Assembly (NCBI GenBank): GCA_020724525.1
Contig: DYGU01000004.1
Coordinates: 35,100-99,099, forward strand
DNA length: 64,000 nt
Direction: 5' to 3'
Source of the DNA: Dehalococcoides mccartyi
GTDB taxonomy: Bacteria > Chloroflexota > Dehalococcoidia > GIF9 > DYGU01
Shown here in pieces: positions 36,007 through 59,893 of this stretch; within the stretch, counting starts at the first letter, position 1; the number at the start of each line of letters is the position of its first letter. Position numbers and translations under genes: made by a program. A model generated the notes under the pieces. The model saw only the letters and a list, made by a program, of their open reading frames with translations. It was not told the DNA's origin and ran no database searches.

Positions 36007-36018
36007 TTTGGGGGTAAT

Positions 36019-36627: not shown

Positions 36628-37360
36628 CTCCCTCCTTCTGGTCCTCGGTGCCAAAGCACATGGCGAAAAGGTCGCGTTCGTAGCTCATACCAATGGCTAA
36701 GGGAGTTTCTAAGGACTTATTTATGGCTATCTTGGCAAGTTTCAATATTACCGGGCTATGCTGCAGAATAGCCTTAGCTACTTCCATAACTGTTTCTTGA
36801 AGCTTTTCTTGGGGGACAACCTTGTTCACCAGCCCCAGCTCTAAAGCTTCTTTGGCGGTGATAAAGTTTCCCGTAAAGATGAGTTCCTTGGCTTTCTTTT
36901 CTCCCACCAGTCGAGGCAGGATCTGAGTCCCACCAGCGCCTGGTATTACGCCAACCCGGATTTCAGGCTGCCCAAACTGAGCATTTTCAGAGGCGATGAT
37001 AATATCGCAAGCCATAGCCAGCTCACAGCCGCCACCAAGAGCAAAACCGTTTACCATGGCTATAACTGGTTTCGGGATTTCCCTCAGCATCTCCACAGCT
37101 CTCTGGGTGCCCTTCGCCCGGAGGATGTCGGCAGGCATCCTTTTGGGAAACTCACTTATATCAGCCCCGGCGCTAAAGGCTTTGTCTCTTGCCCCGGTGA
37201 TGATAATAACTCGGACATTGTCATCATCGCGGGCATCTTCCAGTACCTGGACAAGTTCTGCCCTCATAGTGTCATTCTGGGCATTTCTGACTTCAGGACG
37301 ATTTAAGGTTATCCAGGCTAAAAAGTCTTTTTTCTCATAAATTATGGTCTGTAATTGCAT
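36581..37360 (-). CDS. Enoyl-CoA hydratase (crotonase family).
   Basis: 259 aa with an oxyanion-hole region (FSAGADISEF, ALGGGCELAMACD). Confidence 0.85.
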   Translation of the reverse strand: MQLQTIIYEKKDFLAWITLNRPEVRNAQNDTMRAELVQVLEDARDDDNVRVIIITGARDKAFSAGADISEFPKRMPADILRAKGTQRAVEMLREIPKPVIAMVNGFALGGGCELAMACDIIIASENAQFGQPEIRVGVIPGAGGTQILPRLVGEKKAKELIFTGNFITAKEALELGLVNKVVPQEKLQETVMEVAKAILQHSPVILKLAKIAINKSLETPLAIGMSYERDLFAMCFGTEDQKEGAKAFLEKRKPEYKGK

Positions 37361-37375
37361 CGCTTGTCTCCTTTA

Positions 37376-38329: not shown

Positions 38330-38431
38330 TTACCTGCGAATGTCAATTGCCAGATGTCTTGATCCCCTCTGAAGGTGGTGATAGAATACGCTTTGGTTTG
38401 TCTCCTGAATTAGGAAAAGGGGGAGTTTTTT

Positions 38432-39310
38432 ATGGTTATTATCGGTGAGAGTATTCATATTATTTCCAAGGTGGTCAGTGATGCTATTAAGGAGAGAAAT
38501 CCAAAGCCAATTCAGGAATTAGCTATCGCTCAAAATAGAGCTGGTGCTGACTATATAGACTTGAACTTGGGTCCAGTCCGCCGAGACCCAGAAGAAACAA
38601 TGCAGTGGCTGGTTAATGCTGTTCAGGAAGTTGTCGTTTTGCCTTTGTCATTAGATACTATGAACCCGATAGCTATGGAAGCCGGGCTTAAAATCTGTAA
38701 CAAACGCCCCTTGCTTAACTCAGCTTCAGGAAAAACAGATAGCAAGGAACAGATGCTTCCTTTAGCCAAAAAATATTCCTGTGATGTGGTTATCTCAGTA
38801 ATCACGGACAGAGGCTGTCCCCCCGGTGTTGATGCCAGAGTTGAGAGTATTATGGAAACGGTGGCGCTGGCTAATGAGATGGGTATTCCCAACGAAGATA
38901 TCTGGGTTGACCCAATTCTGTTGCCGGTTAGTGCCAGCCAGGCTGAGGTTAAGGAAACTCTGGAATTTGTGAAAATATTGTCTGATCTTCTGCCTGGCAT
39001 TAAGTCAACTATAGGGTTGTCTAATATATCCAACGGCACACCTGAAGCCCTCCGGGGTATTCTTAACCGAACTTATATGGTGATGTTAGGCAGATATGGA
39101 CAATATTCAGTGATTGCTGATGCCTTAGACAAGGAGCTTATCAGCCTGAAGAGGGGGGAGATGCCTAACATCGTTGACCTTATTTACCGGACTATGGATG
39201 GGGAGGATATAGACCTTTCGTCCCTGTCGCCAAAAGAGCGGGACTATGTCAAAACAACCAAAGTGCTTACGGGGGAAATATTGTATTCCCACGCCTGGCT
39301 GGAAAGTTGA
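38432..39310 (+). CDS. acsE: Methyltetrahydrofolate:corrinoid/iron-sulfur protein methyltransferase (pterin-binding, AcsE-like).
   Basis: Aligns by eye with AcsE throughout: IIGESIH...DYIDLNLGP...LSLDTMNP...LLNSASG...WVDPILLP...IGLSNISNG. Confidence 0.8.
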   Translation: MVIIGESIHIISKVVSDAIKERNPKPIQELAIAQNRAGADYIDLNLGPVRRDPEETMQWLVNAVQEVVVLPLSLDTMNPIAMEAGLKICNKRPLLNSASGKTDSKEQMLPLAKKYSCDVVISVITDRGCPPGVDARVESIMETVALANEMGIPNEDIWVDPILLPVSASQAEVKETLEFVKILSDLLPGIKSTIGLSNISNGTPEALRGILNRTYMVMLGRYGQYSVIADALDKELISLKRGEMPNIVDLIYRTMDGEDIDLSSLSPKERDYVKTTKVLTGEILYSHAWLES

Positions 39311-39331
39311 TATTTTGATAAAGGAATAAAA

Positions 39332-40237
39332 ATGGAATATAGAGCACCCATTGAAACCTATGCGGGTAAGGTCCGAGAGGTGGTAATTGGTAAGGGGAGT
39401 AAAGCTATGAAGATTGGGGGGGAAAGTATTCTCCCTCTTCATTTTTTTGAGGGCTCTATTGAGAACCCCCCTCGACTTGTTTTAGAGGTCTATGATATGG
39501 AGCCAGACGATTGGGCAGGGGCAGTGCTTGAGCCTTATAAAGATGTTGTTTCCGACCCGGTAAAATGGGCACAGAAATGTTTAGATTTTGGTGCTGACCT
39601 TGTCTGCCTTAAGCTAATGAGTACTGACCCGGGCGGGGAAAATGCACCGGCAGAGGCAGTAGCAGCCCTTACCAAAAAAGTAGCCACCACCATTAACACC
39701 CCCCTCATTGTTTATGGCTCGGGGGATGAGACCAAAGACATTGAGGTGTTAACTAAGGTGGCTGAAGTCTGCGCTGGAGAAAACCTCCTCTTAGGTCCAG
39801 CGGTTAAGGAAAATTATGAGCCGATATGCAAAGCCGCTTTGGACTATGGGCATTGTCTTATTGCCCAGACCCCCATAGATATAAACTTGGAAAAGGAACT
39901 AAATATAAAACTGATGAAGTCCTTTCCACCGGAGAGAATAGTTATTGACCCCTTAAGCTCGGCTTTAGGCTATGGTATTGAATACAGCTTCAGCATAATG
40001 GAAAGGACCAAACACATTGGCATTATGTTTAAGGATGCCACCATGCAGATGCCTATAATCGCCGACCTGGGTAAGGAATCGTGGAAAACCAAAGAAGCTA
40101 AAGCCAGTGAAAAGCAGGGTATATTATGGGAAAGCATTGCGGCTTTAACTTTTCTTTTAGCCGGGGCTAATATTTTGGTCTTGCGTCACCCCGAAACCCT
40201 TAAGTTAATTAAGGAAGTAATTACGGGGAAAATTTGA
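39332..40237 (+). CDS. acsD: Corrinoid/iron-sulfur protein small subunit (AcsD / CdhD-like TIM barrel).
   Basis: 301 aa, adjacent to acsE. A degenerate partial copy of its 3' end recurs at 45682-45817. Confidence 0.75.
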   Translation: MEYRAPIETYAGKVREVVIGKGSKAMKIGGESILPLHFFEGSIENPPRLVLEVYDMEPDDWAGAVLEPYKDVVSDPVKWAQKCLDFGADLVCLKLMSTDPGGENAPAEAVAALTKKVATTINTPLIVYGSGDETKDIEVLTKVAEVCAGENLLLGPAVKENYEPICKAALDYGHCLIAQTPIDINLEKELNIKLMKSFPPERIVIDPLSSALGYGIEYSFSIMERTKHIGIMFKDATMQMPIIADLGKESWKTKEAKASEKQGILWESIAALTFLLAGANILVLRHPETLKLIKEVITGKI

Positions 40238-40319
40238 CCTTACATGAGACCGGTGGGCAAAATACTAAAAGCTTTGATATCTTTGCCCTCGCACGAGAAG
40301 TAGTAGCATCGGAGGGATT

Positions 40320-40796
40320 ATGGAAGACCACCTATCAGAGATTTTGCCATCCTATAGAGGAAAGAGAAGCAAACTGATTCCGATTCTACAAGAGGTTCAG
40401 GCAAAATTTGGCTACCTGCCCGAGGAGGTGATGCGTGAGCTTGCCACGTTTATCGGCATACCGGAGTGTGAGGCATATAGTGTAGCTACTTTTTATGCTC
40501 AATTCCGGCTCATGCCCCTTGGTAAGAAACGGGTTGCGATCTGCCGAGGCACTGCGTGTCACATCAGCGGTGCCCCCAAAATTCTCGAGGCGACAGAGAA
40601 GGTACTCGGCATAAAGGATGGGGAAACCACAGCTGACCTGGAATATACCCTGGAAACTGTTGCCTGTATTGGTTGCTGTGCGCTAGCCCCTTGTCTAAGG
40701 ATTAACGAGGATGTCCATGGTCGGCTGACGCCGGCAAAGGCAAGCGAACTTTTCCCCGCCCCAAGTACAAATAAAGGAGAGCAAGATGTCCAATAG
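40320..40796 (+). CDS. NuoE/HymA-like [2Fe-2S] thioredoxin-fold subunit.
   Basis: 158 aa with the Cys pattern CRGTACH...CIGCCALAP. Overlaps the next gene by 11 nt. Confidence 0.85.
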   Translation: MEDHLSEILPSYRGKRSKLIPILQEVQAKFGYLPEEVMRELATFIGIPECEAYSVATFYAQFRLMPLGKKRVAICRGTACHISGAPKILEATEKVLGIKDGETTADLEYTLETVACIGCCALAPCLRINEDVHGRLTPAKASELFPAPSTNKGEQDVQ

Positions 40797-42603
40797 GCAA
40801 TGCACTGTTTTAGTTTGCCAGGGGACAGGCTGTATTTCAGGGGGGGCCGAACCAATTTACTCTTCACTGGAAGGAGAGATAGCCAAGCCCGATCTGAGGG
40901 AAAACGTTCATCTCAAGCGTACTGGCTGTCATGGCTTTTGCCAACAAGGTCCTCTTGTCATTGTTGAGCCGGAAGGCTTTTTTTATTCAAAAGTTAAACC
41001 AGATGATGTACACGAAATTGTTCAATCACTTTTACCGGAAAGAAAGGTTGTAAAACGCCTCTTATACCGCGACCCTATTACCAATAAGCGTATACCTTAT
41101 TATCGTGATATCCCTTTCTATAGTAAACAACAACGCACGGTGCTTAGAAATTGTGGCAAAATCAACCCCGAGGATATTAATGACTATCTTGCTTCGAATG
41201 GCTATCAGGCGCTGCGGAAGGCTCTTTTTGAGCTCACCTCGGAGCAAATTATTGAGGAGGTGAAACACTCCGGACTTCGGGGACTGGGGGGAGCGGGCTT
41301 CCCTGCTGGACAGAAGTGGGAAGCCTGCCGTAGAGCGCCTGGTGAGGTAAAGTATGTGATCTGCAACGCTGATGAAGGTGACCCCGGGGCATTTCAGGAC
41401 CGCTCAGTTTTAGAGGGAGACCCTCATTCAGTTTTGGAGGGGATGATAATCGCTGGGTATGCTGTTGGTGCAAAACAGGGCTTTGTCTACGTGCGTGCCG
41501 AATATCCACTGGCGGTGAAGCGCCTTTACATTGCCACCGCCCAAGCGAGGGAAAGGGGATTTCTGGGCCGGAATATTTTGGGGAGCGGATTTGTTTTTGA
41601 TATAGAGATCTTCCAGGGAGCCGGAGCCTTCGTTTGTGGCGAGTCTACAGCGCTAGTCCTTTCCATTGAAGGCAAAAGGGGGATGCCGAAGTCTCTCCCT
41701 CGTCCCAGAACTACCGAGGTAGGGTTATGGGGTAAGCCAACTTTGCTTAATAATGTAAAGACCTTCGCCAATATCCCTCTGATTATTATTCATGGTTCAG
41801 AGTGGTTTGCCTCCAGAGGCACTGAGCGGAGTAAAGGCACGGCTATTTACTCACTGACGGGCAAGGTGGCAAACTGCGGTCTGATAGAAGTGCCTATGGG
41901 AATTAAGCTTCGAGAAATTGTCTATGGTATTGGAGGAGGACCTCCGGGAGGGAAGGCTTTCAAGGCGGTCCAAACCGGCGGACCCTCAGGTGGTTGTCTT
42001 CCGGCAGAGCTTTTGGATATGCCGATCGATTTTGACTCACTTACTGCCGCCGGCTCGATGATGGGCTCGGGAGGCGTAGTGGTGGTGGATGAAGATACCT
42101 GCATGGTTGATGTAGCCCGCTATTTTCTTGACTTCACCCAAAAAGAATCCTGCGGTCAATGTTTGCCATGTAGACTCGGCACGTACCAGATGCTTCAAAT
42201 ATTGGAAAGGATTACAAGGGGGGAGGGGGTACCCGGCGACATAGAGAGACTTGAGTGGATTGGACGGAGGGTCAAGGAGTATTCTCTTTGTGGACTTGGA
42301 ACGACTGCGCCAAATCCTGTGCTTAGTACTATTAAATATTTTCGTGAGGAATATGAAGAGCATATTTATAATAAATACTGCCGGGCAAAGGTCTGCGCCT
42401 TAGGCATGTTCCGGATTGAACCGGATGAATGTGTTCTCTGTGGCCTTTGCCAAGGGGTATGTGAAACTGGGGCGGTAAAGGAAATCAGGAATAAGTTTTT
42501 TATAGTCCAGGATTACTGCAACAAATGCAAGTCCTGCTATACTATCTGTCCTGTTGGGGCAGTAAGGGTGGAGAAATACTTACCTAAAGAGGTGACAAAG
42601 TGA
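40786..42603 (+). CDS. NuoF/HymB-like flavoprotein: N-terminal [2Fe-2S] domain, FMN/NAD(P)H domains, an N3-type [4Fe-4S], and two C-terminal ferredoxin motifs.
   Basis: GGAGFPAGQKWE and CNADEGDPGAF (FMN/NADH site); ESCGQCLPCRLGT-x39-C; C-terminal CVLCGLCQGVCETGAV and CNKCKSCYTICPVGAV. Confidence 0.85.
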   Translation: MSNRQCTVLVCQGTGCISGGAEPIYSSLEGEIAKPDLRENVHLKRTGCHGFCQQGPLVIVEPEGFFYSKVKPDDVHEIVQSLLPERKVVKRLLYRDPITNKRIPYYRDIPFYSKQQRTVLRNCGKINPEDINDYLASNGYQALRKALFELTSEQIIEEVKHSGLRGLGGAGFPAGQKWEACRRAPGEVKYVICNADEGDPGAFQDRSVLEGDPHSVLEGMIIAGYAVGAKQGFVYVRAEYPLAVKRLYIATAQARERGFLGRNILGSGFVFDIEIFQGAGAFVCGESTALVLSIEGKRGMPKSLPRPRTTEVGLWGKPTLLNNVKTFANIPLIIIHGSEWFASRGTERSKGTAIYSLTGKVANCGLIEVPMGIKLREIVYGIGGGPPGGKAFKAVQTGGPSGGCLPAELLDMPIDFDSLTAAGSMMGSGGVVVVDEDTCMVDVARYFLDFTQKESCGQCLPCRLGTYQMLQILERITRGEGVPGDIERLEWIGRRVKEYSLCGLGTTAPNPVLSTIKYFREEYEEHIYNKYCRAKVCALGMFRIEPDECVLCGLCQGVCETGAVKEIRNKFFIVQDYCNKCKSCYTICPVGAVRVEKYLPKEVTK

Positions 42604-43445
42604 TAAGGATGGAGGATGTAAAGGCAAAGGCAGAGGAGAGAAGGTGTCCACTGCAGAAAGCAATTGTCTTCATAGAGGAGTTTTTAAATGAACCACTGTG
42701 TGGAGAATGTCTTCCGTGCACACTTGGGAGTCAGGAACTTAAGATAAGGTTACAGAAGATTGCCGACGGTAAAGGAACTCAATTAGATATCGATGCTATA
42801 GATAAAATTACCGGACATATGCTTGAGATATCAAGATGTAGGAAAGGTATGGATACAGCGAGATTCATAATAGACTCTACAAAGGAAGGCTCATTTAAAG
42901 GACATCTTGAGGGGGTGTGTAATGAAAAAGAATGCCTGTCACTTATTATGTACCGGATTATACCTGAGAAGTGCGTAATGTGCGGCACTTGTCAAGATAT
43001 TTGTAAAGAGAATGCAATAATCGGGGAAAAGAAAAAGCCTTTAAGCTACCAGCCTATTCAGATAAATGCCAGGAAATGCAGAAGTGAAAGGGGTTGTAAT
43101 GAGTGCGTAAGAGTATGTCCTACAGGAGCAATAGAGGTGATAGAGGTAGAAGGTAGGTACTTGCCTTTTGAGATAAGTCAGAAGAGATGTACAAGATGTG
43201 ATGAATGTATAAAGGTGTGTCCTGTTTCAGGAGCAATAGGGGTAATAGAGATAGCTGGTTTAAGGGTAGTACCAATTGACTGGTTAGATATTTCAAAAGC
43301 AATAGGGGTAGCAGATATAGGCTTCCGACCTTTTGAGATAGTTCAGAAGAGATGCACCACCAAATGTGGTGAGTGTATAAAGGGATGTCCCTCAGGAGCA
43401 ATAGAGGTGGTAGATATAAAAGAGCAAGTAGCAGTTGGCAGTTAG
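42600..43445 (+). CDS. Polyferredoxin with an N-terminal NuoF-C-terminal-like [4Fe-4S] module and tandemly repeated [4Fe-4S] motifs.
   Basis: CGECLPCTLGS-x39-C reproduces the NuoF N3 cluster spacing. It is followed by CVMCGTCQDICKENA and a series of CxRCDECIKVCP / CTTKCGECIKGCP units. The 3' third contains an about 130 bp tandem DNA duplication (43140-43400). AT-rich, with AGA/ATA-biased codon usage. Confidence 0.7.
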   Translation: MIRMEDVKAKAEERRCPLQKAIVFIEEFLNEPLCGECLPCTLGSQELKIRLQKIADGKGTQLDIDAIDKITGHMLEISRCRKGMDTARFIIDSTKEGSFKGHLEGVCNEKECLSLIMYRIIPEKCVMCGTCQDICKENAIIGEKKKPLSYQPIQINARKCRSERGCNECVRVCPTGAIEVIEVEGRYLPFEISQKRCTRCDECIKVCPVSGAIGVIEIAGLRVVPIDWLDISKAIGVADIGFRPFEIVQKRCTTKCGECIKGCPSGAIEVVDIKEQVAVGS

Positions 43446-43468
43446 AACAAAAAGGATAAGGAGAGAAA

Positions 43469-45511
43469 ATGGCAGATTTGGTAACAGTAAAGATAGACGG
43501 CCGGCAAGTTAGTGTCCCGCCAGGGACTAATCTGATTGATGCCGCTGAGATAGCTGGCATTCATATACCAAACCTTTGTTATCTTAAGGGTATGAGGGGA
43601 GTAGGCGCATGCCGGCTCTGCCTTGTTGAGGTGGCGGGGGCAGAAAGGCTAATGGTAGCCTGCATGACAAGGGTTAGGGAAGGGATGAGTGTAATTACAA
43701 ATTCAGAGCGCGTGCTCGACGGCCGAAGATTTGTGATTGACATTATTATTTCTATGCATCCTCTTGATTGTATGACATGCACAAAGAGCGGTGTCTGCAA
43801 ACTCCAAAAATACGCTTATGATTTTGGGTTGAAGGAGTCGAGCTTTACCAGGAAGAGATTTGACTACCCAACTGATGAGGCAAATCCATTCATAAAGCGT
43901 GACCCTGATTACTGTATACTCTGTGGACGCTGTGTGCGAATGTGTAAGGCACAGGGCACCAGTGTGCTTGACTTTATGAGAAGGGGTATTAGTACAAAGG
44001 TTACTACAACCCGAGACAGACCACTTCACGAGTCAGGATGCACATTTTGTGGCAGCTGTGTTGATGTCTGTCCTACCAATGCCTTTGTCGAAGCCGGCAG
44101 ATGGGGAAAGGGTAGGGAGTGGGAATATGAGGATATAAGTTCTGTATGCCTTTACTGTGGTAACAGCTGTGATATAAATGTGAGCCGAAAAGACAACGAG
44201 ATCATAAAGATTAGTAGTAATGCCCCTGAGGACTCGGTTGAACACTATTTATGCGCTATCGGCAGATTTGGTTTTGACTATATCCACTCTCATACCAAGG
44301 TGATGTCTCCTATGAAAAGAGTAGATGGTAAACTTCAGGCGACAACATGGGAAGAGGCACTTGATATTGTTGCCGCTAAACTCAAAGATGCCGGCATGGA
44401 TGCCGGATTTGTCAGCACGGCAGACATCCTTAATGAAGATGCTTTAGTGTTAAGGAGATTTGCTAAGGATGTTGTTAAGACAAAAAACTTTGATACAACT
44501 GTAAGCCTTTATGCCGAAGCTGACTCTATGAGGCTTTCGGGTGTGGCTAATATGGATAAAGCAGACCTTATAGTAGTTGTTGGACTTAACCCATCTCAGT
44601 GGGAGAGGGTTCTTCCTGCCCTTGATGCCTCAATAAGAAAAAAGCTTGACAGGGGTGCAAAACTTATTGTCATAAATTCGGCTGAGACACGGCTTTCATC
44701 TGTAGCCGATATAACCCTCAGGGGAGAGGAGGTATCTAATCTCAAGGCAATTGTAAAGGCATTGATAGACAGGGGTTTTAAGGCTGACAAAGAAATAGAG
44801 GATGCCGTTTCAGGGGCAAAAATTTCCGAAGATATTGAAAATGCTGCAAAATTATATGCTGAGTCAAAGAGCCCATTAATCCTGGTAGCGCCATCCCTTT
44901 ATAATGCCTCAGCCAATATTGGACTTCTTAGTTCCTCCTCCCCACTCACTACCTCGTTGGTTGCAGTTCCAGCAGAGAGCAATGCCAGAGGTGTTGTTCT
45001 TATGGGGCTGACGACAAAAAACAAAACATACAGAGATATGATTTCAGGTGATATAAAGTTGCTATATGTACTCGGTGAGATACCTTTAGCGGAAAGACCA
45101 AATGTTGATTTCCTTATAGCACAGAGTTCACACTTTACCGAACTTTCAAAGCAAGCTGATATAGTCCTTCCAGCGTCAGCTGCCCTTGAGGCAGAGGGCA
45201 GTATTGTGGACTATCTTGGCAGACTGAAATATCTACGTAAAGCAGTTGCGCCGGCAGGCGAGGCTAAATTACATCGGGAGATATTTATGGAGCTTTCCAA
45301 GATAATGGGTTGTCCAATCGAGGTACCAAAAGAGACAGAGATTAAAGAGTCTTTAAGGATAGAGGTAAAACCCTCATTTAGTCCCTTTAAGAAAAAAGAG
45401 GGACTTGATTTTGGCTTTTACGAGATGATTGAACTAATAAATGCCTCAGTGATTGGTAGTTCAAGGTTATTGTGGCTTAAAGAGGCTAAGATACTTCAAA
45501 AGGTCAAATGA
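43469..45511 (+). CDS. NuoG / formate-dehydrogenase-alpha-like Fe-S subunit (680 aa). It lacks a full molybdopterin C-terminal domain.
   Basis: N-terminal plant-type [2Fe-2S] (CYLKGMRGVGACRLCLV...C), a His-ligated cluster HPLDCMTCTKSGVC, CILCGRCVRMC, CTFCGSCVDVCP, then a MopB-type CLYCGNSCD and a truncated molybdopterin-oxidoreductase-like region. Same AT-rich, AGA/ATA codon bias as the preceding gene. Confidence 0.7.
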   Translation: MADLVTVKIDGRQVSVPPGTNLIDAAEIAGIHIPNLCYLKGMRGVGACRLCLVEVAGAERLMVACMTRVREGMSVITNSERVLDGRRFVIDIIISMHPLDCMTCTKSGVCKLQKYAYDFGLKESSFTRKRFDYPTDEANPFIKRDPDYCILCGRCVRMCKAQGTSVLDFMRRGISTKVTTTRDRPLHESGCTFCGSCVDVCPTNAFVEAGRWGKGREWEYEDISSVCLYCGNSCDINVSRKDNEIIKISSNAPEDSVEHYLCAIGRFGFDYIHSHTKVMSPMKRVDGKLQATTWEEALDIVAAKLKDAGMDAGFVSTADILNEDALVLRRFAKDVVKTKNFDTTVSLYAEADSMRLSGVANMDKADLIVVVGLNPSQWERVLPALDASIRKKLDRGAKLIVINSAETRLSSVADITLRGEEVSNLKAIVKALIDRGFKADKEIEDAVSGAKISEDIENAAKLYAESKSPLILVAPSLYNASANIGLLSSSSPLTTSLVAVPAESNARGVVLMGLTTKNKTYRDMISGDIKLLYVLGEIPLAERPNVDFLIAQSSHFTELSKQADIVLPASAALEAEGSIVDYLGRLKYLRKAVAPAGEAKLHREIFMELSKIMGCPIEVPKETEIKESLRIEVKPSFSPFKKKEGLDFGFYEMIELINASVIGSSRLLWLKEAKILQKVK

Positions 45512-45681
45512 TACTGGTGGGGTTCCTAATAGGAGTATCCAACAGGATGCCACAAGAGTTTAGGTGGATTCTTATTGATGATGCTATCCAGGTATGGTCA
45601 ATTGGCTTGGATGGGGAGAGAAGCTTAAATAAGGGATAAATGCTTAGTATTGTTGACCTTGTCAAAGATAGCATGACACAC

Positions 45682-45817
45682 ATGCCTATAATTGCTGACC
45701 TGGGCGGGAATGCTGGAAAGCCAAAGAAGCCTTCTTTTAGTCGGGGCTAACATTTTAGTATTACGGCACCCAGATAACTACAAACTAATTAAGGAAGTGA
45801 TTCAGCAGAAATTTGAT
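45682..45817 (+). pseudogene. Vestigial duplicate of the acsD 3' end (non-coding remnant) immediately upstream of cdhA.
   Basis: CATGCCTATAATTGCTGACCTGGG...CCAAAGAAGC...CTAATTAAGGAAGTGATT...AAATTTGAT matches acsD 40046-40237 (ATGCCTATAATCGCCGACCTGGG...CTTAAGTTAATTAAGGAAGTAATTACGGGGAAAATTTGA). It carries an internal deletion and stop codons. Confidence 0.6.
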
Positions 45818-45854
45818 AAAAAATGAGAATGAATTGCTATAAGAATAAGATTAA

Positions 45855-48182
45855 ATGCCAGAGGAGGTATATAACGTGGTAGTAATAGTTAAGAAAAAGA
45901 CAAGGAAAGACGAGAAACTGGAAATTATACGAGCCGAGGACTTATGGGAACCAGTAGGCCCGACGCCAATGCCGGACCTTGCTGATTTGAGAAACTGGGA
46001 CATGAGACTGCTCAAAACCTATAAGCCTTTTTATGCCCCCTTCTGCGACTTATGCTGCTTTTGTACCTATGGCAAATGCGACCTTACTGGTGAACAAGGG
46101 GGTGCCTGTGGCATTGATATGCCCACTCAGCAAGGAAGGATAGTTCTTCTGGCTTGCTGTGGGGGGGTTGCGGCTCATGGTGCTCATGGCAGGCATATTA
46201 TTGACTATTTGATTGAGAAATATGGAGAAGATTATAAAATTGACCTGGGAACACAGGTAGCTGTAGAAGCACCAATAATCAGGACTGTTCTTGGTCTTAA
46301 ACCAGAGACTCTGGGAGATTTAAAGAAAGCTATAGAGTATGTGGAACGAGGGCTCATTCATCTTGTTTCCTCACTACACACCGGTCAGGAGGGGAGTGAT
46401 TTAGATTACGAATCAAAAGCTCTCCACGCCGGGATGCTTGACCATGTCGCCCTGGAGGTTACTGATATTGCCCAGATTGTCGGCTTCAGCTTTCCCACAT
46501 CTATTGCTGATACTCCTTTGGTGGATTTCGGTTGGGGAGTAGTAGACAAAACTAAGCCGGTAATTTTATGTATTGGGCATAATCCAGCTACAGCCACTTC
46601 CATTATTGATTACTTGAACCAGAACAATTTGCAAGATGAAGTTGAGGTCTGTGGAATATGTTGCACTGCCCTTGAGGTAACCAGATATTCAAAAGCAGCC
46701 AAAGTTATCGGTCCTCTATCCCGGCAGCTTTTCTTTGTGAGGAGCGGTGTGGCTGATGTCATTGTTACTGAGGAACAGTGTATAAGAGCTGATACTTCCC
46801 TTGAAGCCAAGAAGGCAGGTTCGGCTCTAATTGCTGCCTCGGACAAAGCTTGTTACGGACTTGATAATGTCACTGAAAAGGAAGCCGATGAGATTGTTAA
46901 GGAGATGGTGGAGGTAGGAAAGCAAGTATTGATACTTGTCCCGGAGAAGGCAGCTGAGGTGGCGGTAAAGGTAGCTATAAAAATTGCTCGACAAAGGGAA
47001 AAAGAACTTATTGAGGCATCTCAGGTTCCTGAACTTGTCCAGGAATGTCATAATTGCCGTATTTGTGACCGGAACTGCCCTAACCTTTTGCCTGTAGGTG
47101 AAGCGGTGGAGCAAGCTGGTAAAGGCAACTTGGAAAAGTTAATTGAGGTGTTTAATAAGTGCCTTGGCTGTGGCAAGTGTGAGCAAGACTGCCCTCGTAA
47201 TATTCCTATTTTAAAGCTGATGCAGGCGGTTGCCAGCGGGGAAACTTTTAAGCTCAGGAGCGGGCGTGGACCCATCCATGATGTGGAAATAAGAAAGGTT
47301 GGCGCCCCTATTGTCTTAGGGACTATACCTGGAGTTGTTGCCTTTGTTGGTTGCTCTAACTTCCCTGAGGAAATAGATGAAGTGGCTGAGATGATGGAGG
47401 AGTTTGCCCGGAGGAAGTATATTGTAGTAGCTTCAGGCTGCGCTGCCATGGCGGCGGCGACGAAGAAAGATGCCGAAGGAAAAACTATTTATGAGAAGTA
47501 CCCCCCCGATTTCGATGCTGGCGGTGTTTTGAATGTGGGCTCCTGTGTGGCTAATTCTCATATTGCAGGAGCGGCTATAAAAATAGCCAACATTTTTGCC
47601 GCTCTGCCATTGAGAGCTAATTACGAGGTCATTGCTGACTATATTCTTAACCGGGTTGGGGCTTGTGGGGTTGCCTGGGGGGCTTATTCCTGGAAAGCAG
47701 CGGCAATTGCCACCGGCTGTAATAGATGGGGAATTCCAGTAGTTGTTGGTCCTCACTCTTCCAAATACCGGAGGCTCTATCTCAGTCGGAAAGAGGAAGA
47801 TGACTGGACAGTGATGGATGGCAGGACAAGGCAGTTAGTGGATACTCAGGAGCCATCTCCAGAGCATTTAATCAATGTAGTTGAGTCTAAAGAACGAGCT
47901 ATAGTCACTATAGCCAAGCTATGCATCCGGAAAAATGATACCCCTCAGGGGAGGCAGATAAAGCTTAACCATTACATTGCTCTTCATAAGCAATATCTGG
48001 GAACTCTACCCGATGATCTTCACCTCTTTATCCGACGAACTACTGACATTCCCATTTTCTTCAAAAAGGAGGTTATGGAATATCTCCAAAAAGTTGGCTG
48101 GAAAGAAAAGCCAGTATTGACTTTACCAACTCTGATCGGGACTTACCCTTCTAAGGTGCCTCTGGAGGCTGTTATCCATTAA
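45855..48182 (+). CDS. cdhA: CO dehydrogenase catalytic subunit, archaeal CdhA type (ACDS alpha).
   Basis: N-terminus GPTPMPDLADLRNWDMRLLKTYKPFYAPFCDLCCFCTYGKCDLTGEQGGACGIDM...AAHGAHGRHIIDYLIEKYGED closely follows archaeal CdhA. Mid-protein has two ferredoxin-type motifs (CHNCRICDRNCP, CLGCGKCEQDCP) characteristic of CdhA. Confidence 0.85.
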   Translation: MPEEVYNVVVIVKKKTRKDEKLEIIRAEDLWEPVGPTPMPDLADLRNWDMRLLKTYKPFYAPFCDLCCFCTYGKCDLTGEQGGACGIDMPTQQGRIVLLACCGGVAAHGAHGRHIIDYLIEKYGEDYKIDLGTQVAVEAPIIRTVLGLKPETLGDLKKAIEYVERGLIHLVSSLHTGQEGSDLDYESKALHAGMLDHVALEVTDIAQIVGFSFPTSIADTPLVDFGWGVVDKTKPVILCIGHNPATATSIIDYLNQNNLQDEVEVCGICCTALEVTRYSKAAKVIGPLSRQLFFVRSGVADVIVTEEQCIRADTSLEAKKAGSALIAASDKACYGLDNVTEKEADEIVKEMVEVGKQVLILVPEKAAEVAVKVAIKIARQREKELIEASQVPELVQECHNCRICDRNCPNLLPVGEAVEQAGKGNLEKLIEVFNKCLGCGKCEQDCPRNIPILKLMQAVASGETFKLRSGRGPIHDVEIRKVGAPIVLGTIPGVVAFVGCSNFPEEIDEVAEMMEEFARRKYIVVASGCAAMAAATKKDAEGKTIYEKYPPDFDAGGVLNVGSCVANSHIAGAAIKIANIFAALPLRANYEVIADYILNRVGACGVAWGAYSWKAAAIATGCNRWGIPVVVGPHSSKYRRLYLSRKEEDDWTVMDGRTRQLVDTQEPSPEHLINVVESKERAIVTIAKLCIRKNDTPQGRQIKLNHYIALHKQYLGTLPDDLHLFIRRTTDIPIFFKKEVMEYLQKVGWKEKPVLTLPTLIGTYPSKVPLEAVIH

Positions 48183-48199
48183 AAGGAGGTTTAAGTAAT

Positions 48200-48745
48200 A
48201 TGAGTATACCTTATCACTATGTCAATGTCCCTACTGGATTTAAGACCGCTCGCATTATAGAAGATGCCAGTGAATATGCCCACTTAATCAAAAGAGCCAG
48301 AAGACCCTTATTGCTCTTAGGACCGCTGACACTGAGGATATCCCTTAATGGCAGGCTACTTATGGAGTATGGTGTGGATATAGCTAAAGCAGCTAACATC
48401 CCGGTATGTGCCACTGCCCATACTAAGAAGAAATTGCTCGAACTAGGAGTAACTCCAGAAAGCACCTATGACATAATAGAAATCATTAATCATCTCAAGG
48501 ATAAGGAATGGCGAGGAGTTAAAAAAGAAGGTAATCACGACCTGGTGATGTTCCTGGGTTTCAGGACTGATTTAGGCCAGCAGGGACTGTCAACACTGAA
48601 GCATTTTGCTCCCCACCTCAGGACTATGACTTTATGTAAGTATTATTATCCCAATGCTGCTTACTCTCTTCCTAATCTAAAAGATGATAAATGGGGAGAA
48701 TTTCTGGAAAATCTAATAGCAAATCTAAAGGAAAAGGGGGTATAA
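48200..48745 (+). CDS. cdhB: ACDS epsilon subunit (CdhB).
   Basis: 181 aa. ARRPLLLLG and AANIPVCATA segments match CdhB (AKRPLLMVG, AANIPIAATG). It lies immediately after cdhA. Confidence 0.7.
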   Translation: MSIPYHYVNVPTGFKTARIIEDASEYAHLIKRARRPLLLLGPLTLRISLNGRLLMEYGVDIAKAANIPVCATAHTKKKLLELGVTPESTYDIIEIINHLKDKEWRGVKKEGNHDLVMFLGFRTDLGQQGLSTLKHFAPHLRTMTLCKYYYPNAAYSLPNLKDDKWGEFLENLIANLKEKGV

Positions 48746-49997: not shown

Positions 49998-51365
49998 ATG
50001 CCACTTAAAGGGACTGATATTGTCAAAAAGCTTCCTGAATCGGGCAAAAAGAACTGTAAGGAATGTGGTTTCCCTACCTGCTTTGCCTTTGCTATGAAGT
50101 TAGCCTCAGGGGGGACTACTGTGGACAAGTGTCCCTATCTTTCCCCAGAGGTCAAGGCTGAATTAGAAGATGCCTTAGCTCCTCCGATACGGTTGGTTAC
50201 CATTGGTCGTGGTGAAAATAGCCTTCAGATTGGTAATGAAGAAGTAATTTACAGGCATGAGAAGACCTTTATCCATAAACCTGGCATTGCCTTTCTTATT
50301 TCTGACATAGAGAGCGAGGCTAAGGTTGAGGAAAAGGTGGAGAAGCTTAGGGGACTCCAGTTTCCGCGGGTAGGGCTAACCCTTAAAGCTGACCTGCTGG
50401 CTTTAAGGAATGAATCAGGGGAAAAATCTAAGTTTGAAGCTTTAGTAAGGAGAGTTTACCAGAATACTGATGCTCCCCTTATATTAATTTCTGAGGATAC
50501 AGATGCCCTGTTTTTGGCTCGGGACATATGTGCCGATAGGTCACCCCTTGTTTATCCCATAACTAAAGAAAATATCGATGAGGCAATTCCGAAAATAAAG
50601 GAGAAGCCAACTCCGGTGGGAGTGCGGGGACAAAATATTGAAGACCTTATTTTCCTTACCACTAAATTGAAAGACGCCGGAATTGGAGATATAGTTTTAG
50701 ACCCTGGCTCCAGATGCTTTCAGCAAGCTATAGCTGATCAGACTCTAATTCGCCGCGCCGCTTTAAAGCAGAATTTTAGACCTTTGGGCTATCCTACTAT
50801 TGGCTTTCCTTGTTTCATGGCTAAAGATAACTTGAGGGAGTTCCTTGTTGCGGCTATGTTTATTATTAAATACGCTGGGATTATTGTCCTTTCCGATACC
50901 GACAAGGAATCGTTACTGCCCCTATTAGTCCAAAGACTTAGTATCTACACTGACCCCCGGATACCTATGTCTGTTGAAGACAAAGTATATGAAATCCTCG
51001 AAGCTACTGAAGAATCGCCTGTACTCCTGACTGCTAATTGGGCATTGACCTATTTTATCGTTTCCGGGGAAATTGAAGGTAGTAAGGTTTCGTCTTGGCT
51101 GTGCGTTAAGAATACGGAAGGGCTGGGGGTGCTTACTGCCTGGGCAGCCGGTAAGTTTTCCGGTGATACTATAGGTCCCTTTATCAGGAAATGTGGCATT
51201 GAAGGTAAGGTGAAACATCGCCGGCTAATTATTCCGGGGAAAGTAGCCCGGATTAAAGGCGAGCTGGAAGAGGCATTGCCTGGCTGGGAAATTATTGTTG
51301 GACCTCGGGAAGCCGCTGAAATCCCAGCCTTTTTGCCAACCCTTGTGCGGCAGTGGCAGAACTAA
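49998..51365 (+). CDS. acsC: Corrinoid/iron-sulfur protein large subunit (AcsC / CdhE).
   Basis: N-terminal [4Fe-4S] motif CKECGFPTCFAFAMKLASGGTTVDKCPY, followed by TIM-barrel and B12-binding regions. Confidence 0.85.
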   Translation: MPLKGTDIVKKLPESGKKNCKECGFPTCFAFAMKLASGGTTVDKCPYLSPEVKAELEDALAPPIRLVTIGRGENSLQIGNEEVIYRHEKTFIHKPGIAFLISDIESEAKVEEKVEKLRGLQFPRVGLTLKADLLALRNESGEKSKFEALVRRVYQNTDAPLILISEDTDALFLARDICADRSPLVYPITKENIDEAIPKIKEKPTPVGVRGQNIEDLIFLTTKLKDAGIGDIVLDPGSRCFQQAIADQTLIRRAALKQNFRPLGYPTIGFPCFMAKDNLREFLVAAMFIIKYAGIIVLSDTDKESLLPLLVQRLSIYTDPRIPMSVEDKVYEILEATEESPVLLTANWALTYFIVSGEIEGSKVSSWLCVKNTEGLGVLTAWAAGKFSGDTIGPFIRKCGIEGKVKHRRLIIPGKVARIKGELEEALPGWEIIVGPREAAEIPAFLPTLVRQWQN

Positions 51366-59892: not shown

Positions 59893-59893
59893 T

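Follow-up and report, generated by a model that had tools for sequence, protein, structure and literature searches.

The analysed window is a 64,000-nt stretch of a Dehalococcoidia (Chloroflexota) metagenome contig and carries an operon with the gene order acsE-acsD-cdhA-cdhB-cdhC-acsC, followed by nuoE2-nuoF2-cooC (Table 1). The operon belongs to the already known hybrid CODH/ACS type: its resident part is identical in make-up and order to the acsED-cdhABC-acsC operon of some bacteria, in which bacterial acsE, acsD, and acsC are combined with archaeal-type cdhA, cdhB, and cdhC (PMC7325909; PMC9586279; both citing Adam et al. 2018). It differs from that operon in that acsD and cdhA are parted by a 5.6-kb insert and an acsD pseudogene, and in that the Dehalococcoidia version adds its own nuoE2-nuoF2-cooC tail. 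Gene content and coordinates, which were checked with Pfam and NCBIfam profiles, agree with the first-pass annotation of the window, which had placed four genes (40320-45511) between acsD and cdhA.

Table 1. Features of the acsD-cdhA region and of the resident nuoE2-nuoF2 pair (window coordinates).
Feature	Position	Strand	Evidence
acsE-like methyl-THF:corrinoid/Fe-S protein methyltransferase, first resident operon gene	38432-39310	+	Pfam Pterin_bind, 74 bits
acsD, resident, intact (CODH/ACS delta subunit, small corrinoid Fe-S protein subunit)	39332-40237	+	NCBIfam NF003376, 369 bits, above cutoff
Left junction spacer, acsD stop to L078-shared sequence	40238-40297	.	
nuoE1, NuoE/HydC (BfuC)-like [2Fe-2S] subunit, inserted	40320-40796	+	Pfam 2Fe-2S_thioredx, 168 bits; NF005722, 154.6 bits, above cutoff
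nuoF1, HydB (BfuB)-type flavoprotein, inserted	40786-42603	+	Pfam Complex1_51K, NADH_4Fe-4S, 2Fe-2S_thioredx, Fer4
Polyferredoxin, NADH_4Fe-4S domain and Fer4 repeats, inserted	42600-43445	+	Pfam
NuoG/HydA-N-terminal (BfuA)-like Fe-S subunit, inserted	43469-45511	+	Pfam Fer2_4, NADH-G_4Fe-4S_3, Fer4, Molybdop_Fe4S4, Molybdopterin
acsD 3'-end pseudogene remnant, two blocks, one frameshift	45664-45817	+	blastn; repeat families D3, D7, D13
cdhA, archaeal-type CODH alpha subunit	45855-48182	+	TIGR00314, 1125.7 bits
nuoE2, resident	51353-51835	+	
nuoF2, resident	51832-53721	+	

The acsE-like gene scores 223.7 bits against NCBIfam NF005719, under the 259-bit cutoff, and its ortholog occupies the equivalent position in all relatives. 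Resident AcsD is 87-88 per cent identical to its L004 and P0002 orthologs, and the AcsD tree places it in a {window, L004, L075} clade (199 of 200 bootstraps). The more likely start of cdhA is the GTG at 45876, which is preceded by GGAGG; downstream of this gene lie cdhB, cdhC, acsC, nuoE2, nuoF2, and a cooC-like gene. The nuoE2-nuoF2 pair comes after acsC in nearly all related loci with enough sequence (mostly directly, in three after cooC; 49-81 per cent identity), and NuoF2 clusters with the orthologs from related loci in the NuoF tree. This pair is inherited vertically along with the operon: it keeps its place in all relatives and follows the species tree, in line with its earlier description as host-like. 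Neighbouring genes scanned at 31624-38329 and 54690-60811 have beta-oxidation, peptidase, DNA-repair, and other ordinary functions.

Insertion between acsD and cdhA

The genes acsE, acsD, and cdhA are contiguous in every one of the 17 Dehalococcoidia/Chloroflexota genome loci that have an operon of this type (L004-L006, L008-L020, and L062; AcsD 64-87 per cent identical) and also in the P0002 lineage (88 per cent). The adjacency extends to the two closest relatives (AcsD 87-88 per cent), and the acsD-cdhA spacer measures 18-66 nt among the loci whose start codons were read. Because acsD is directly followed by cdhA in these 18 relatives, the two closest included, the module is a lineage-specific insertion: the 5.2-kb block of nuoE1, nuoF1, polyferredoxin, and nuoG-like genes is inserted between acsD and cdhA in this lineage alone. 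The proposal that acsD and cdhA were formerly contiguous is thus confirmed by their adjacency in all 18 related lineages. Since the source is a metagenome contig, the block might have been misjoined to the operon during assembly. We regard such a chimera as having practically no chance of being correct: sequences from three independent datasets (L001-L003) are identical to the window base for base across the region (0 mismatches), two of them (L001 and L002) cross both junctions, and independent contigs of a second lineage repeat the module-cdhA adjacency.

In that second lineage (L078-L080), nuoE, nuoF, polyferredoxin, and nuoG genes that are respectively 76, 88, 61, and 79 per cent identical to the inserted ones sit 46 nt upstream of cdhA. 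Their presence there, as well as NuoEFG-like genes that adjoin the operon in L010 and L017, might suggest that the module is ancestral to the Dehalococcoidia operon and was cleanly deleted in all other sampled lineages. This scenario is very improbable: precise deletions would have had to occur many times independently, leaving 18-66-nt spacers in 18 lineages, among them the two nearest relatives, and the presence of an acsD pseudogene next to a complete acsD would go unexplained. Moreover, the NuoEFG-like genes of L010 and L017 reach no more than 32-54 per cent identity and have a different place, upstream of acsE, and no other genes deviate as strongly in codon usage as the polyferredoxin and nuoG-like genes (see below). 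No transposase or integrase families were detected among the four long ORFs of the insert, and a repeat search found no prominent terminal repeats around it.

Composition and ancestry of the inserted genes

NuoE1 has cysteine motifs Cx4C (75) and Cx3C (116) and is 49 per cent identical to NuoE2. In NuoF1, an FMN/NADH core is flanked by a [2Fe-2S] domain at the N-terminus and a 2x[4Fe-4S] domain at the C-terminus, with CxxCxxCxxxC motifs at 549 and 578; in a comparison with PDB structures the protein matches 7t2r_B over its full length (808 bits), and HydB, StnB, and NfnB chains are matched too. The polyferredoxin has the architecture of the C-terminal part of HydB/NuoF, in the PDB comparison it matches 7t2r_B and related HydB chains between residues ~435 and 594, and its ferredoxin units are repeated internally at 43089-43424 (direct repeats D1, D2, D4, D5, and D11). 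By its sequence, it is identified as a putative derivative of the C-terminal half of a HydB-type NuoF. In the NuoG-like protein, a molybdopterin-oxidoreductase-like domain is present, but Molydop_binding (PF01568) is absent in the Pfam scan; its PDB matches are 9bov_A, 8oh5_C, StnA, FdsA, Nqo3, and complex I 75-kDa subunits. Collectively, these protein features identify the four-gene block as a predicted flavin and iron-sulfur module of the HydABC/Bfu type.

Third-position GC contents of nuoE1, nuoF1, polyferredoxin, and nuoG-like genes (0.49, 0.47, 0.35, and 0.40, respectively) are unremarkable on their own against a window mean of 0.445 (sd 0.048). The view that the inserted nuoE and nuoF are GC-richer at third positions does not hold, as both lie within 1 sd and the difference is not significant. 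When the synonymous-codon distances of 51 window genes were compared with a sampling null, the polyferredoxin gene (z 7.5) and the nuoG-like gene (z 7.0) ranked first and second in atypicality, whereas nuoF1 (z 3.0) ranked 7th and nuoE1 (z 0.7) 26th. ATA accounts for 23 of the 34 Ile codons in the polyferredoxin gene. The first-pass claim of a compositionally foreign module therefore stands for the polyferredoxin and nuoG-like genes, the top two codon outliers, but not for nuoE1 and nuoF1, which are not atypical.

In the NuoF tree, NuoF1 and the L078 NuoF fall inside a 16-member clade with Chloroflexi/Dehalococcoidia-labelled proteins (100 per cent bootstrap support), apart from the clade of NuoF proteins from Nitrospirota modules. 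NuoF1 is only 52 per cent identical to NuoF2 and belongs to a separate clade with 100 per cent bootstrap support; it is a distant paralog or xenolog of NuoF2, in agreement with the first-pass view of the inserted pair. The NuoG-like protein is 79 per cent identical to P0122 and at most 64 per cent identical to all others; besides P0122, its nearest relatives (60-64 per cent) come from sources whose labels, where given, are almost all Nitrospirota or Thermodesulfovibrionales. The module may thus be a mosaic, with nuoE1 and nuoF1 from a clade with Chloroflexi/Dehalococcoidia NuoEF and with polyferredoxin and nuoG-like genes that are nearest to the Nitrospirota type.

Scars at the junctions and ancestry of cdhA

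A blastn comparison of the spacer downstream of the module with the whole window matched 45732-45816 to 40152-40237 (76.7 per cent over 86 nt, E 3e-12) and 45679-45730 to 40046-40098 (83 per cent over 53 nt, E 5e-9), both within acsD, whereas all remaining matches had E >= 0.2. The degenerate acsD 3' copy noticed earlier at 45682-45817 is therefore significant on alignment. An independent repeat search recovered the same pairs and lengthened the 5' block to 45664 (D3, D7, and D13); upstream of ~45664, similarity to acsD is at noise level (45 per cent). In tblastn, the remnant matches AcsD residues 273-300 at 71 per cent identity and residues 232-259 in a different frame. It lacks ~50 nt of acsD (40099-40151) between its blocks, and its stop codon (45815-45817) is at the position homologous to the resident acsD stop. 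No RNA structure signal (z -0.77) and no Rfam match were found in the remnant. None of the three circumstances that the first-pass annotation had named as speaking against an insertion was observed: the same gene order in relatives with no acsD remnant, a non-significant similarity, or uniform codon usage.

In L078, the scar is a fragment of the cdhA 5' end, situated immediately upstream of nuoE and carrying an internal deletion and a stop codon (Smith-Waterman score 66 vs shuffle maximum 35). This lineage has its scar left of the module and none to the right; on that side, the contig reaches 110 nt beyond nuoE. An interpretation of this scar as being of a 'donor type' was rejected, as one of its blocks resembles the cdhA of L078 itself and the shortness of the other prevents its placement. 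In the window, the sole part of the left spacer that aligns with L078 is 40298-40319, the last ~21 nt ahead of the nuoE1 ATG (Smith-Waterman score 27 vs shuffle maximum 26); comparison of the remainder with the cdhA 5' end gave nothing significant (Smith-Waterman; 18 of 300 shuffles scored equally high).

Approximately the first 1.3 kb of cdhA (to about 47150) has an ancestry unlike that of the remaining operon. In neighbour-joining trees reconstructed from corrected p-distances (not by maximum likelihood), the {window, L004, L075} clade is recovered for AcsE, AcsD, the CdhA C-terminus, CdhB, CdhC, AcsC, and NuoF2 in 185-200 of 200 bootstraps, but for CdhA residues 1-430 in only 24 of 200, where L004 and L075 pair in 200 of 200. 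The discordance is composite: residues 1-280 place the window outside the L004/L075/L078 group (an L004-L075 pair that excludes the window has 298 of 300 bootstraps), residues 281-450 join it with L016/L017/L020 (295 of 300), and residues 561-775 pair it with L004 (269 of 300). Because the window is no further from outgroups than L004 in the CdhA identity matrix, the discordance is not a simple rate acceleration. A clear recombination signal at the DNA level is limited to 46691-47147, the maximum chi-squared segment, whose value was reached by none of 200 permutations. Gene conversions that took place separately and had nothing to do with the insertion could also account for the discordance.

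Arrival of the module

Overall, the locus is a clear and rather ordinary instance of operon remodelling through recombination. Because the 5' half of cdhA is recombinant, the event looks like an import of the module, an acsD fragment, and a cdhA 5' end from a related lineage. On balance, we favour the joint reading that a HydABC/Bfu-type module serving as a CODH electron partner was imported by recombination from related Dehalococcoidia with the geometry of a single crossover. The module would have arrived with DNA of a related Dehalococcoidia lineage, and not via a transposon, adjoining an acsD-cdhA junction, of which the acsD 3' pseudogene (45664-45817) and the cdhA 5' half of foreign ancestry would be the leftovers. 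The phylogenetic discordance would put the right crossover inside cdhA, at about 47150-47500.

The cdhA 5' scar of L078, being on the opposite side of the module, fits a single crossover that duplicates the junction. The best fit to both lineages would be a Campbell-type single crossover of a circular fragment bearing the module and an acsD3'-spacer-cdhA5' stretch, with acsD-(cdhA5')-module-(acsD3')-cdhA as the product; the window and L078 lineages would later each have deleted one of the two redundant fragments. Integration of this type duplicates its homologous target and predicts truncated flanking genes permuted around the insert (cdhA5' left, acsD3' right), and the predicted scars match those of L078 (left) and of the window (right). 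However, the two scars occur in different lineages and never together, and neither a circular intermediate nor a donor is known; the loci compared include no donor genome arranged as predicted.

Alternatively, the junction was duplicated in situ: the insertion occurred ~12 nt past the resident acsD stop, the acsD 3' end was copied and decayed neutrally, and the odd cdhA 5' end results from a later, unrelated gene conversion. The remnant is indeed closest to the resident acsD (76 per cent, vs 72-73 per cent for the L075 and L004 orthologs and 56-69 per cent for others), both copies stop at the homologous position, and the similarity may extend ~12 nt beyond both stop codons (D17). Yet the lead of the resident copy over L075 and L004 amounts to merely ~5 nt, and the substitutions between remnant and resident acsD (5, 6, and 16 at the three codon positions) show a third-position excess of 16/27 (P about 0.007-0.016, from merely 27 substitutions over 137 aligned sites) that is unexpected under neutral decay. 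Furthermore, the discordant cdhA tract starts directly beside the scar, and the cdhA scar that L078 has on the opposite side of the module is not predicted by a simple acsD 3' duplication. We therefore consider in situ duplication unlikely, although an old one is conceivable. Given the third-position bias and the discordant adjoining cdhA 5' end, the scar looks like an imported allele and not like a fresh copy of the resident gene. The earlier idea of a recombination event that duplicated the junction is accordingly retained in its structural part, as there are two junction copies, but a fresh copying of the resident acsD is an unlikely origin for the remnant.

Predicted function

In 27 of the 28 informative metagenome loci (those with at least 2.5 kb of upstream sequence), the module is immediately preceded by acsB/acsA-like genes; the four-gene version behind these bacterial-type acs operons is 57-64 per cent identical and lies mostly on Nitrospirota-labelled contigs. 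Because a related version follows acs operons in 27 of 28 loci, the module probably serves to move electrons between CODH and NAD(H)/ferredoxin. Judging from gene content and context, it is most likely a dedicated electron-transfer partner whose low-potential Fe-S chains connect the CODH active site with NAD(H) and ferredoxin, and electron bifurcation or confurcation may be involved. A bifurcating role would require a third redox partner.

Alternatively, the block might be NuoEFG, the NADH-input (N) module of an 11-subunit complex I, encoded apart from the other subunits, and its position next to acs genes would be a mere convenience of co-expression. The three core subunits are homologous to those of the N-module, NuoE1 passes the NCBIfam NuoE model, and the alignment of the NuoG-like protein covers residues 3-660, nearly its full length, with complex I 75-kDa subunits and residues 57-618 with Nqo3; the protein also matches TIGR01973 at 339.8 bits. 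In addition, nuoEFG genes are reported to be missing from the nuo operons of deep-sea Dehalococcoidia, one relative keeping them in a separate operon (PMC5736913). Nevertheless, this explanation is improbable. Complex I NuoF lacks the HydB-type additions of NuoF1, the [2Fe-2S] domain at the N-terminus and the 2x[4Fe-4S] domain at the C-terminus, and NuoF1 scores 657-808 bits over its full length against bifurcating B subunits (629 for a truncated HydB chain) but about 350-377 against NuoF/Nqo1. Neither the NuoF nor the NuoG equivalog cutoff is reached (470 bits for TIGR01973), the polyferredoxin has no counterpart in complex I, and the module lies outside any nuo operon, with CODH/ACS genes adjoining it in 27 of 28 loci.

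The reading as a CODH partner has a parallel in the Bfu (HydABC-type) family (Schut et al. 2022; PMC9304861), whose subunit set (a NuoE-like C, a NuoF-like B with N-terminal [2Fe-2S] and C-terminal 2x[4Fe-4S] domains, and a NuoG-like A) matches the module. The best solved-structure matches of the module are the B subunits of bifurcating NiFe/FeFe hydrogenases, StnABC, and NfnABC. The same study proposed an uncharacterised Codh-Bfu in Firmicutes that shares with the module a genetic linkage to a Ni-CODH. In Codh-Bfu, however, a stand-alone CooS-type CODH lies between bfuB and bfuA, whereas the module is linked to a complete CODH/ACS operon and has an additional polyferredoxin resembling a truncated B subunit. 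In contrast to the Firmicutes setting of Codh-Bfu, the module is found in Dehalococcoidia, with a homologous version in Nitrospirota-labelled contigs.

NAD-dependent formate dehydrogenases (FdsABG/FdhA-NuoEF) occur in Wood-Ljungdahl clusters of relatives (L163). A catalytic formate dehydrogenase was considered for the NuoG-like protein and rejected, because the 680-aa protein, in contrast to the FdsABG alpha subunit, is without a Molydop_binding domain and scores 163.8 bits against TIGR01591 (cutoff 666 bits). The alpha subunit has N-terminal Fe-S domains in common with the NuoG-like protein, and the NuoE/NuoF-like subunits of these enzymes come from the clade of NuoF1 (P0267 is 70 per cent identical to NuoF1).

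Organization of the locus and insertion of the four-gene block

In profile searches, a single cluster combines archaeal-type cdhA, cdhB, and cdhC with bacterial acsE, acsD, and acsC, making the locus a hybrid archaeal/bacterial CODH/ACS operon. The true start of cdhA is likely the GTG at 45876, behind a GGAGG.

Features of the CODH/ACS locus (window coordinates) and the evidence for their assignment
Feature	Position	Strand	Evidence
acsE-like methyltransferase gene	38432–39310	+	PF00809
acsD (delta subunit), resident copy	39332–40237	+	NF003376
nuoE1 (NuoE-like)	40320–40796	+	PF01257, 168 bits
nuoF1 (NuoF-like)	40786–42603	+	Complex1_51K, 149.8 bits; NADH_4Fe-4S, 112 bits
Polyferredoxin gene	42600–43445	+	ORF listing, profile searches
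nuoG-like gene	43469–45511	+	Fer2_4, NADH-G_4Fe-4S_3, Fer4
Spacer of 343 nt with decayed acsD 3′ end	between nuoG-like gene and cdhA		
cdhA, archaeal-type	45855–48182	+	TIGR00314, 1125.7 bits (cutoff 781.3)
cdhB	after cdhA	+	PF02552
cdhC	after cdhA	+	PF03598, PF19436
acsC	after cdhA	+	PF03599, PF04060
nuoE2-nuoF2 (second NuoE/NuoF pair)	51353–53721, after acsC	+	
cooC-like ATPase gene	after nuoE2-nuoF2	+	

The first-pass annotation proposed that a module had been inserted between once-adjacent acsD and cdhA and had left a scar at the junction, and both synteny and blastn bear out the core of that interpretation. The nearest AcsD homologs come from Dehalococcoidia/Chloroflexota MAGs. We scanned the genome collection with AcsD and mapped all operon proteins onto the resulting 70 loci. 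In all 17 Dehalococcoidia/Chloroflexota loci with this operon type (L004–L006, L008–L020, and L062; AcsD 64–87 per cent identical), acsD is directly followed by cdhA in a contiguous acsE-acsD-cdhA arrangement, and the order usually continues with cdhB, cdhC, acsC, and nuoE2-nuoF2 as far as the contig extends, with cooC present in some. The P0002 lineage (AcsD 88 per cent identical) has the same acsD-cdhA order with an 18-nt spacer; across the loci whose start codons were read, this spacer measures 18–66 nt. The contiguity of acsD and cdhA in relatives indicates that the four-gene block is an insertion specific to the lineage of the window, and the insertion postdates the divergence from the two nearest relatives sampled. 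An identical AcsD is encoded on three contigs, one of them a 102.8-kb JGI metagenome contig and the remaining two from different sequencing runs. Because these three contigs match the window base for base over 7.4–20.9 kb, and two of the three cross both junctions, the arrangement is not an assembly artefact.

The insert does not have the features of a transposon, an insertion sequence, or an integrative element. Its four long ORFs, the ones scanned, matched redox-protein families only, with no transposase or integrase family among the matches. Terminal inverted repeats were not found, the inverted repeats present being short, 70–93 per cent complementary, and away from the insert ends, and the direct repeat is a gene fragment of 165–220 nt, unlike a short target-site duplication. 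The neighbouring genes scanned have ordinary metabolic and DNA-repair functions. A promoter and terminator scan of 38200–46200 returned fewer promoter-like sites than in shuffled sequences and none at the junctions, and Rfam matched only a tRNA in the window, with no match at the junctions.

The acsD remnant and the mosaic cdhA

When the spacer was compared with the whole window by blastn, 45732–45816 matched 40152–40237 (76.7 per cent of 86 nt; E = 3e-12) and 45679–45730 matched 40046–40098 (83 per cent of 53 nt; E = 5e-9), with no further match below E = 0.2. A repeat search found the same pairs and extended the 5′ block to 45664; upstream of approximately this position, similarity to acsD is noise. 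About 50 nt of acsD are absent between the two blocks, which lie in different reading frames, and the remnant has a stop codon at the position homologous to that of resident acsD. The remnant spacer gave no structured-RNA signal (z = −0.77).

The remnant differs from resident acsD by 27 substitutions, of which 5, 6, and 16 fall on codon positions 1, 2, and 3, respectively (P about 0.007–0.016). This predominance of third-position changes indicates that purifying selection acted on both copies during most of their divergence, and the remnant does not resemble a duplicate of resident acsD that decayed neutrally. In a column-by-column table, it is 76 per cent identical to resident acsD, 73 per cent to that of the close relative L075, and 72 per cent to that of the close relative L004. 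A donor resembling L016, L017, or L018, considered on a few states shared by eye, was rejected: identity to L016–L018 and L020 is only 60–67 per cent, and the window, L075, and L004 are closest.

The cdhA gene that adjoins the remnant has a composite phylogenetic signal in our distance-based trees. The window, L004, and L075 form a clade in 185–200 of 200 bootstrap replicates for AcsE, AcsD, the CdhA C-terminus, CdhB, CdhC, AcsC, and NuoF2. For CdhA residues 1–430, this clade appears in only 24 of 200 replicates, and L004 and L075 pair alone in 200 of 200. Within residues 1–280, L004 groups with L075 (298 of 300) and both with the second module carrier L078 (295 of 300), each time without the window; within residues 281–450, the window groups with L016, L017, and L020 (295 of 300), and within residues 561–775 with L004 (269 of 300). 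Window CdhA is no more distant from the outgroups than that of L004 in the identity matrix, and the discordance is therefore not due to rate acceleration. A triplet max-chi-square analysis placed the sharpest anomaly in cdhA at 46691–47147, a value reached in none of 200 permutations.

This stretch (CdhA residues ~280–430) is hypervariable: the window is 53–65 per cent identical to every relative here, whereas L004 and L075 are 84 per cent identical to each other. It reaches into a ferredoxin-like 2×[4Fe-4S] domain (Pfam 395–450) and may be a surface that meets an electron-transfer partner.

A second carrier and the route of entry

The same module lies 46 nt upstream of a native-type cdhA in L078–L080, where no acsD scar is found (window versus L078 identity: NuoE 76 per cent, NuoF 88 per cent, polyferredoxin 61 per cent, and NuoG 79 per cent). 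Directly upstream of the L078 nuoE is a fragment of the cdhA 5′ part (residues ~95–105 and 136–160) that has lost an internal stretch and contains a stop codon. Overall, this fragment is 74.7 per cent identical to the cdhA of the window versus 67.8 per cent to that of L078 itself, both values from short blocks. The proposal that it is of window type is unsupported, since its first block matches the L078 cdhA (93 per cent of 29 nt) and its second is only ~46 nt long. A corresponding cdhA 5′ relic in the left spacer of the window (40238–40297) is not significant, as 18 of 300 shuffles score as high. The 80 metagenome loci listed for the NuoG-like protein are all 57–64 per cent identical and include no close further carrier of the insertion.

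The nuoG-like gene of the window ends seven codons before its L078 counterpart (680 versus 687 aa). Because DNA similarity (45509–45535 versus L078 5300–5330) persists ~25 nt beyond the window's stop codon, a recent change seems to have cut its 3′ end short.

We favour recombination with DNA of a related lineage as the event that brought the module, the acsD fragment, and the 5′ part of cdhA together, based on the third-position substitutions, the mosaic cdhA, and the scar on the opposite side of the module in L078. All three pieces would have arrived as one import, with the right crossover inside cdhA. The incoming DNA could have been a circular fragment, carrying the module and a stretch from the acsD 3′ end through the spacer to the cdhA 5′ end, that integrated by a single crossover; a left-hand truncated cdhA 5′ end combined with a right-hand truncated acsD 3′ end is the permuted pattern expected of such an event, with one redundant fragment of the pair later deleted in each lineage. 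For the import as a whole, the substitutions are few, the trees are distance-based, and the cdhA discordance is composite; the L078 sequence stops short of where acsD is predicted, the longest contig of that lineage in our searches being 6 kb, and no donor was found.

The first-pass annotation had instead read the repeat as a junction duplicated in place. Its degenerate second acsD 3′ end stands, with significant alignments, but the scar and the adjoining half of cdhA look imported. We consider an old in situ duplication of acsD, followed by a separate gene conversion of cdhA, clearly the less probable course, though one that retains appreciable weight: the distribution of remnant substitutions over codon positions is unlike neutral decay, the mosaic cdhA directly adjoins the scar, and L078 bears its cdhA 5′ scar on the other side of the module.

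Composition and ancestry of the module

GC content, GC3, and single-codon fractions do not separate the insert from the rest of the window (GC3 of 0.49, 0.47, 0.35, and 0.40 for nuoE1, nuoF1, the polyferredoxin gene, and the nuoG-like gene; window mean 0.445, sd 0.048). We compared the codon usage of each of 51 genes with that of all others using Karlin's B and a parametric sampling null. The polyferredoxin gene ranks first in codon distance (z = 7.5), the nuoG-like gene second (z = 7.0), and nuoF1 seventh (z = 3.0), whereas nuoE1 is ordinary (z = 0.7). The atypical codon use claimed from sequence alone thus holds for the polyferredoxin and nuoG-like genes; the claimed GC3 enrichment of nuoE1 and nuoF1 does not. 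Part of the polyferredoxin bias comes from its C-terminal repeat region (43089–43424), with a GC3 of 0.30 and 13 of the gene's 23 ATA codons. This region contains three to four internal direct repeats (spacing 66–168 nt, 66–90 per cent DNA identity) that encode CxxCxxCxxxCP-GAIEVIE units, suggesting a recent domain duplication.

The two NuoEF pairs are distantly related (NuoF1 versus NuoF2, 52 per cent; NuoE1 versus NuoE2, 49 per cent). In a neighbour-joining tree, NuoF2 clusters with its counterparts downstream of acsC in the relatives, which indicates vertical descent, and NuoF1 falls elsewhere, in agreement with the earlier view of a host-like resident pair and an inserted xenolog or paralog. 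NuoF1 pairs with L078 NuoF (100 per cent bootstrap support) inside a 16-member clade (100 per cent) that includes Chloroflexi/Dehalococcoidia-labelled proteins, encoded beside a glutamate-synthase-like gene, a HoxU-like gene, and an FAD oxidoreductase gene, or forming the NuoEF part of an NAD-linked formate dehydrogenase next to MTHFR.

Compared with the Nitrospirota-type module, identities are 46 per cent for NuoE, 57 per cent for NuoF, 50 per cent for the polyferredoxin, and 64 per cent for NuoG. NuoF is the slowest-evolving of the four in the comparison with L078, yet falls below NuoG in this distant one, and the discordance parallels the step in codon usage between nuoF1 and the polyferredoxin gene. 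Together with the nesting of NuoF1 among NuoFs of which some are Chloroflexi-labelled, these observations suggest that the module is a mosaic of a nuoEF akin to Chloroflexi NuoEF and a Nitrospirota-type polyferredoxin-nuoG.

The N-terminal extension of resident NuoF2 (51832–53721) aligns with the [2Fe-2S] domain of NuoF1 but has no PF01257 match. It seems to retain three of four cysteines (TATCGRA versus CQGTGC) and may be a degenerate, cluster-less domain.

Distribution and predicted function of the module

Apart from P0122 (79 per cent), all relatives of the NuoG-like protein are at most 64 per cent identical, and their labels, where given, are almost all Nitrospirota/Thermodesulfovibrionales. 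The gene order in one locus, L081, is acsE-acsD-acsC-acsB-acsA-nuoE-nuoF-polyferredoxin-nuoG. In 28 of the 80 listed metagenome loci, sequence extends 2.5 kb or more upstream of nuoE, and in 27 of these acsB/acsA-like genes lie directly upstream. The four-gene unit is thus a conserved appendage of bacterial-type acs operons. Other NuoE/NuoF/short-NuoG (HoxU-like) sets, 32–58 per cent identical, adjoin acs/cdh clusters at different positions (L010 6066–8979; L017 7–2875, minus strand; L041 and L044 ~6400–9500; L029 10087–12485) in several other lineages, a pattern that suggests repeated recruitment of NuoEF(G)-type modules to CODH/ACS operons.

NuoF1 contains a NuoF core with the FMN/NADH site and an N3-type [4Fe-4S] cluster (motifs GAGFPAGQKWE and NADEGDPGAF), plus extra PF01257 (residues 6–82) and Fer4 (543–594) domains with Cx3C at 48 and CxxCxxCxxxC at 549 and 578; complex I NuoF lacks both of these domains. 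The full-length alignment of residues 6–593 with 7t2r_B, from a NiFe hydrogenase complex, scores 808 bits. NuoF1 also matches HydB chains of FeFe hydrogenases, NfnB, and 8oh5_B and 9bov_B (whose deposited names are 'NAD-reducing hydrogenase subunit HoxF' and 'NADH dehydrogenase (Quinone)'); its scores against complex I NuoF (~350–377 bits) are far below those against B subunits of bifurcating enzymes. The polyferredoxin aligns with the C-terminal part of the same B subunits and has additional ferredoxin units, and the NuoG-like protein aligns with 9bov_A, 8oh5_C, FdsA, complex I 75-kDa subunits, and Nqo3. With a B-subunit core, extra N- and C-terminal cluster domains, a C subunit (NuoE-like [2Fe-2S]), and an A subunit (NuoG/HydA N-terminal [2Fe-2S] and [4Fe-4S]), all with their Cys motifs, the module belongs by sequence to the Bfu (HydABC-type) family.

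Schut et al. (2022; PMC9304861) defined this family and proposed an uncharacterised 'Codh-Bfu' in Firmicutes only, with CODH genes between bfuB and bfuA. The window differs in both respects, with the order acsD-bfuC-bfuB-polyferredoxin-bfuA-(scar)-cdhA on a Dehalococcoidia contig. Nor is the NuoG-like protein the alpha subunit of an NAD-dependent formate dehydrogenase: it has 680 aa, lacks PF01568 (Molydop_binding), and scores 163.8 against a TIGR01591 cutoff of 666.25.

The module most likely serves CODH as a dedicated electron route, inward or outward, linked to NAD(H) and ferredoxin, as suggested by the 27/28 linkage and the independent capture beside cdhA. It may couple NAD(H), ferredoxin, and a third substrate by bifurcation, gene linkage being the one pointer to that substrate (possibly CO/CO2 via CdhA). 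Deep-sea Dehalococcoidia have been reported to possess an 11-subunit Nuo (PMC5736913), which a detached complex I N-module (NuoEFG) could serve. This is less likely because NuoF1 is of HydB type, a polyferredoxin is added, and the genes are linked to CODH/ACS. The neighbours here are acs/cdh genes and not nuoA-N; scores fall below the cutoffs of the NuoF model TIGR01959 (470.7 versus 558.65) and the NuoG model TIGR01973 (339.8 versus 470.05), and only NuoE1 passes a Nuo model (NF005722, 154.6 above 141).

Beyond a dedicated electron path, we regard it as unlikely that the module and the N-terminal half of CdhA moved between Dehalococcoidia lineages as a co-adapted cassette, spread by recombination that is guided by homology and duplicates the junction, with the module docking on CdhA to form a Bfu-type bifurcating or confurcating CODH/ACS. 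That half includes the highly divergent ferredoxin-like 2×[4Fe-4S] domain (residues ~395–450), within the discordant tract. If true, this reading would define a new functional class of Bfu serving both bacterial-type AcsA, in the Nitrospirota-type loci, and archaeal-type CdhA, in the window lineage.

How very low-potential electrons reach or leave CODH/ACS is an outstanding question for many uncultured Wood–Ljungdahl lineages. The same kind of module stands beside CODH in two unrelated operon types, the bacterial-type acs of mostly Nitrospirota-labelled loci and the archaeal-type cdh of one Dehalococcoidia lineage, a natural experiment that points to CODH as its partner. The latter case is a datable insertion into an operon with a resident nuoEF pair already in place, and closely related strains with and without the module are available for comparison. 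In the literature, we found no description of the insertion or of an acs-linked four-gene module, only general notes that nuo genes often neighbour Wood–Ljungdahl genes. Both the gain of operon genes by homologous recombination and modules of the Bfu family are known, and this locus adds a case of each; the paired scars are a rare readable record of such gain without mobile elements. Current views are not overturned, and the locus matters mainly because it points to a redox partner of CODH that is so far uncharacterised.

Other features of the window

Many relatives carry a DUF166 gene between cdhA and cdhB (231 aa in L075–L077; L075 4570–5265). The corresponding junction of the window (48182–48200) has only 17 nt and no such gene, and the gene is also absent from L016, L017, L020, and L062; the cdhA-cdhB gap is ~740 nt in L005, L006, L008–L012, L014, and L015 and 210 nt in L004. 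This gene is a second presence/absence polymorphism within the CODH/ACS operon. Elsewhere, in an otherwise gene-poor gap (30854–31624), the source annotation lists a 65-aa product with an MFS_1 match at ~31092–31289 on the minus strand (L001 1761–1958), a candidate fragment of a major-facilitator transporter gene.
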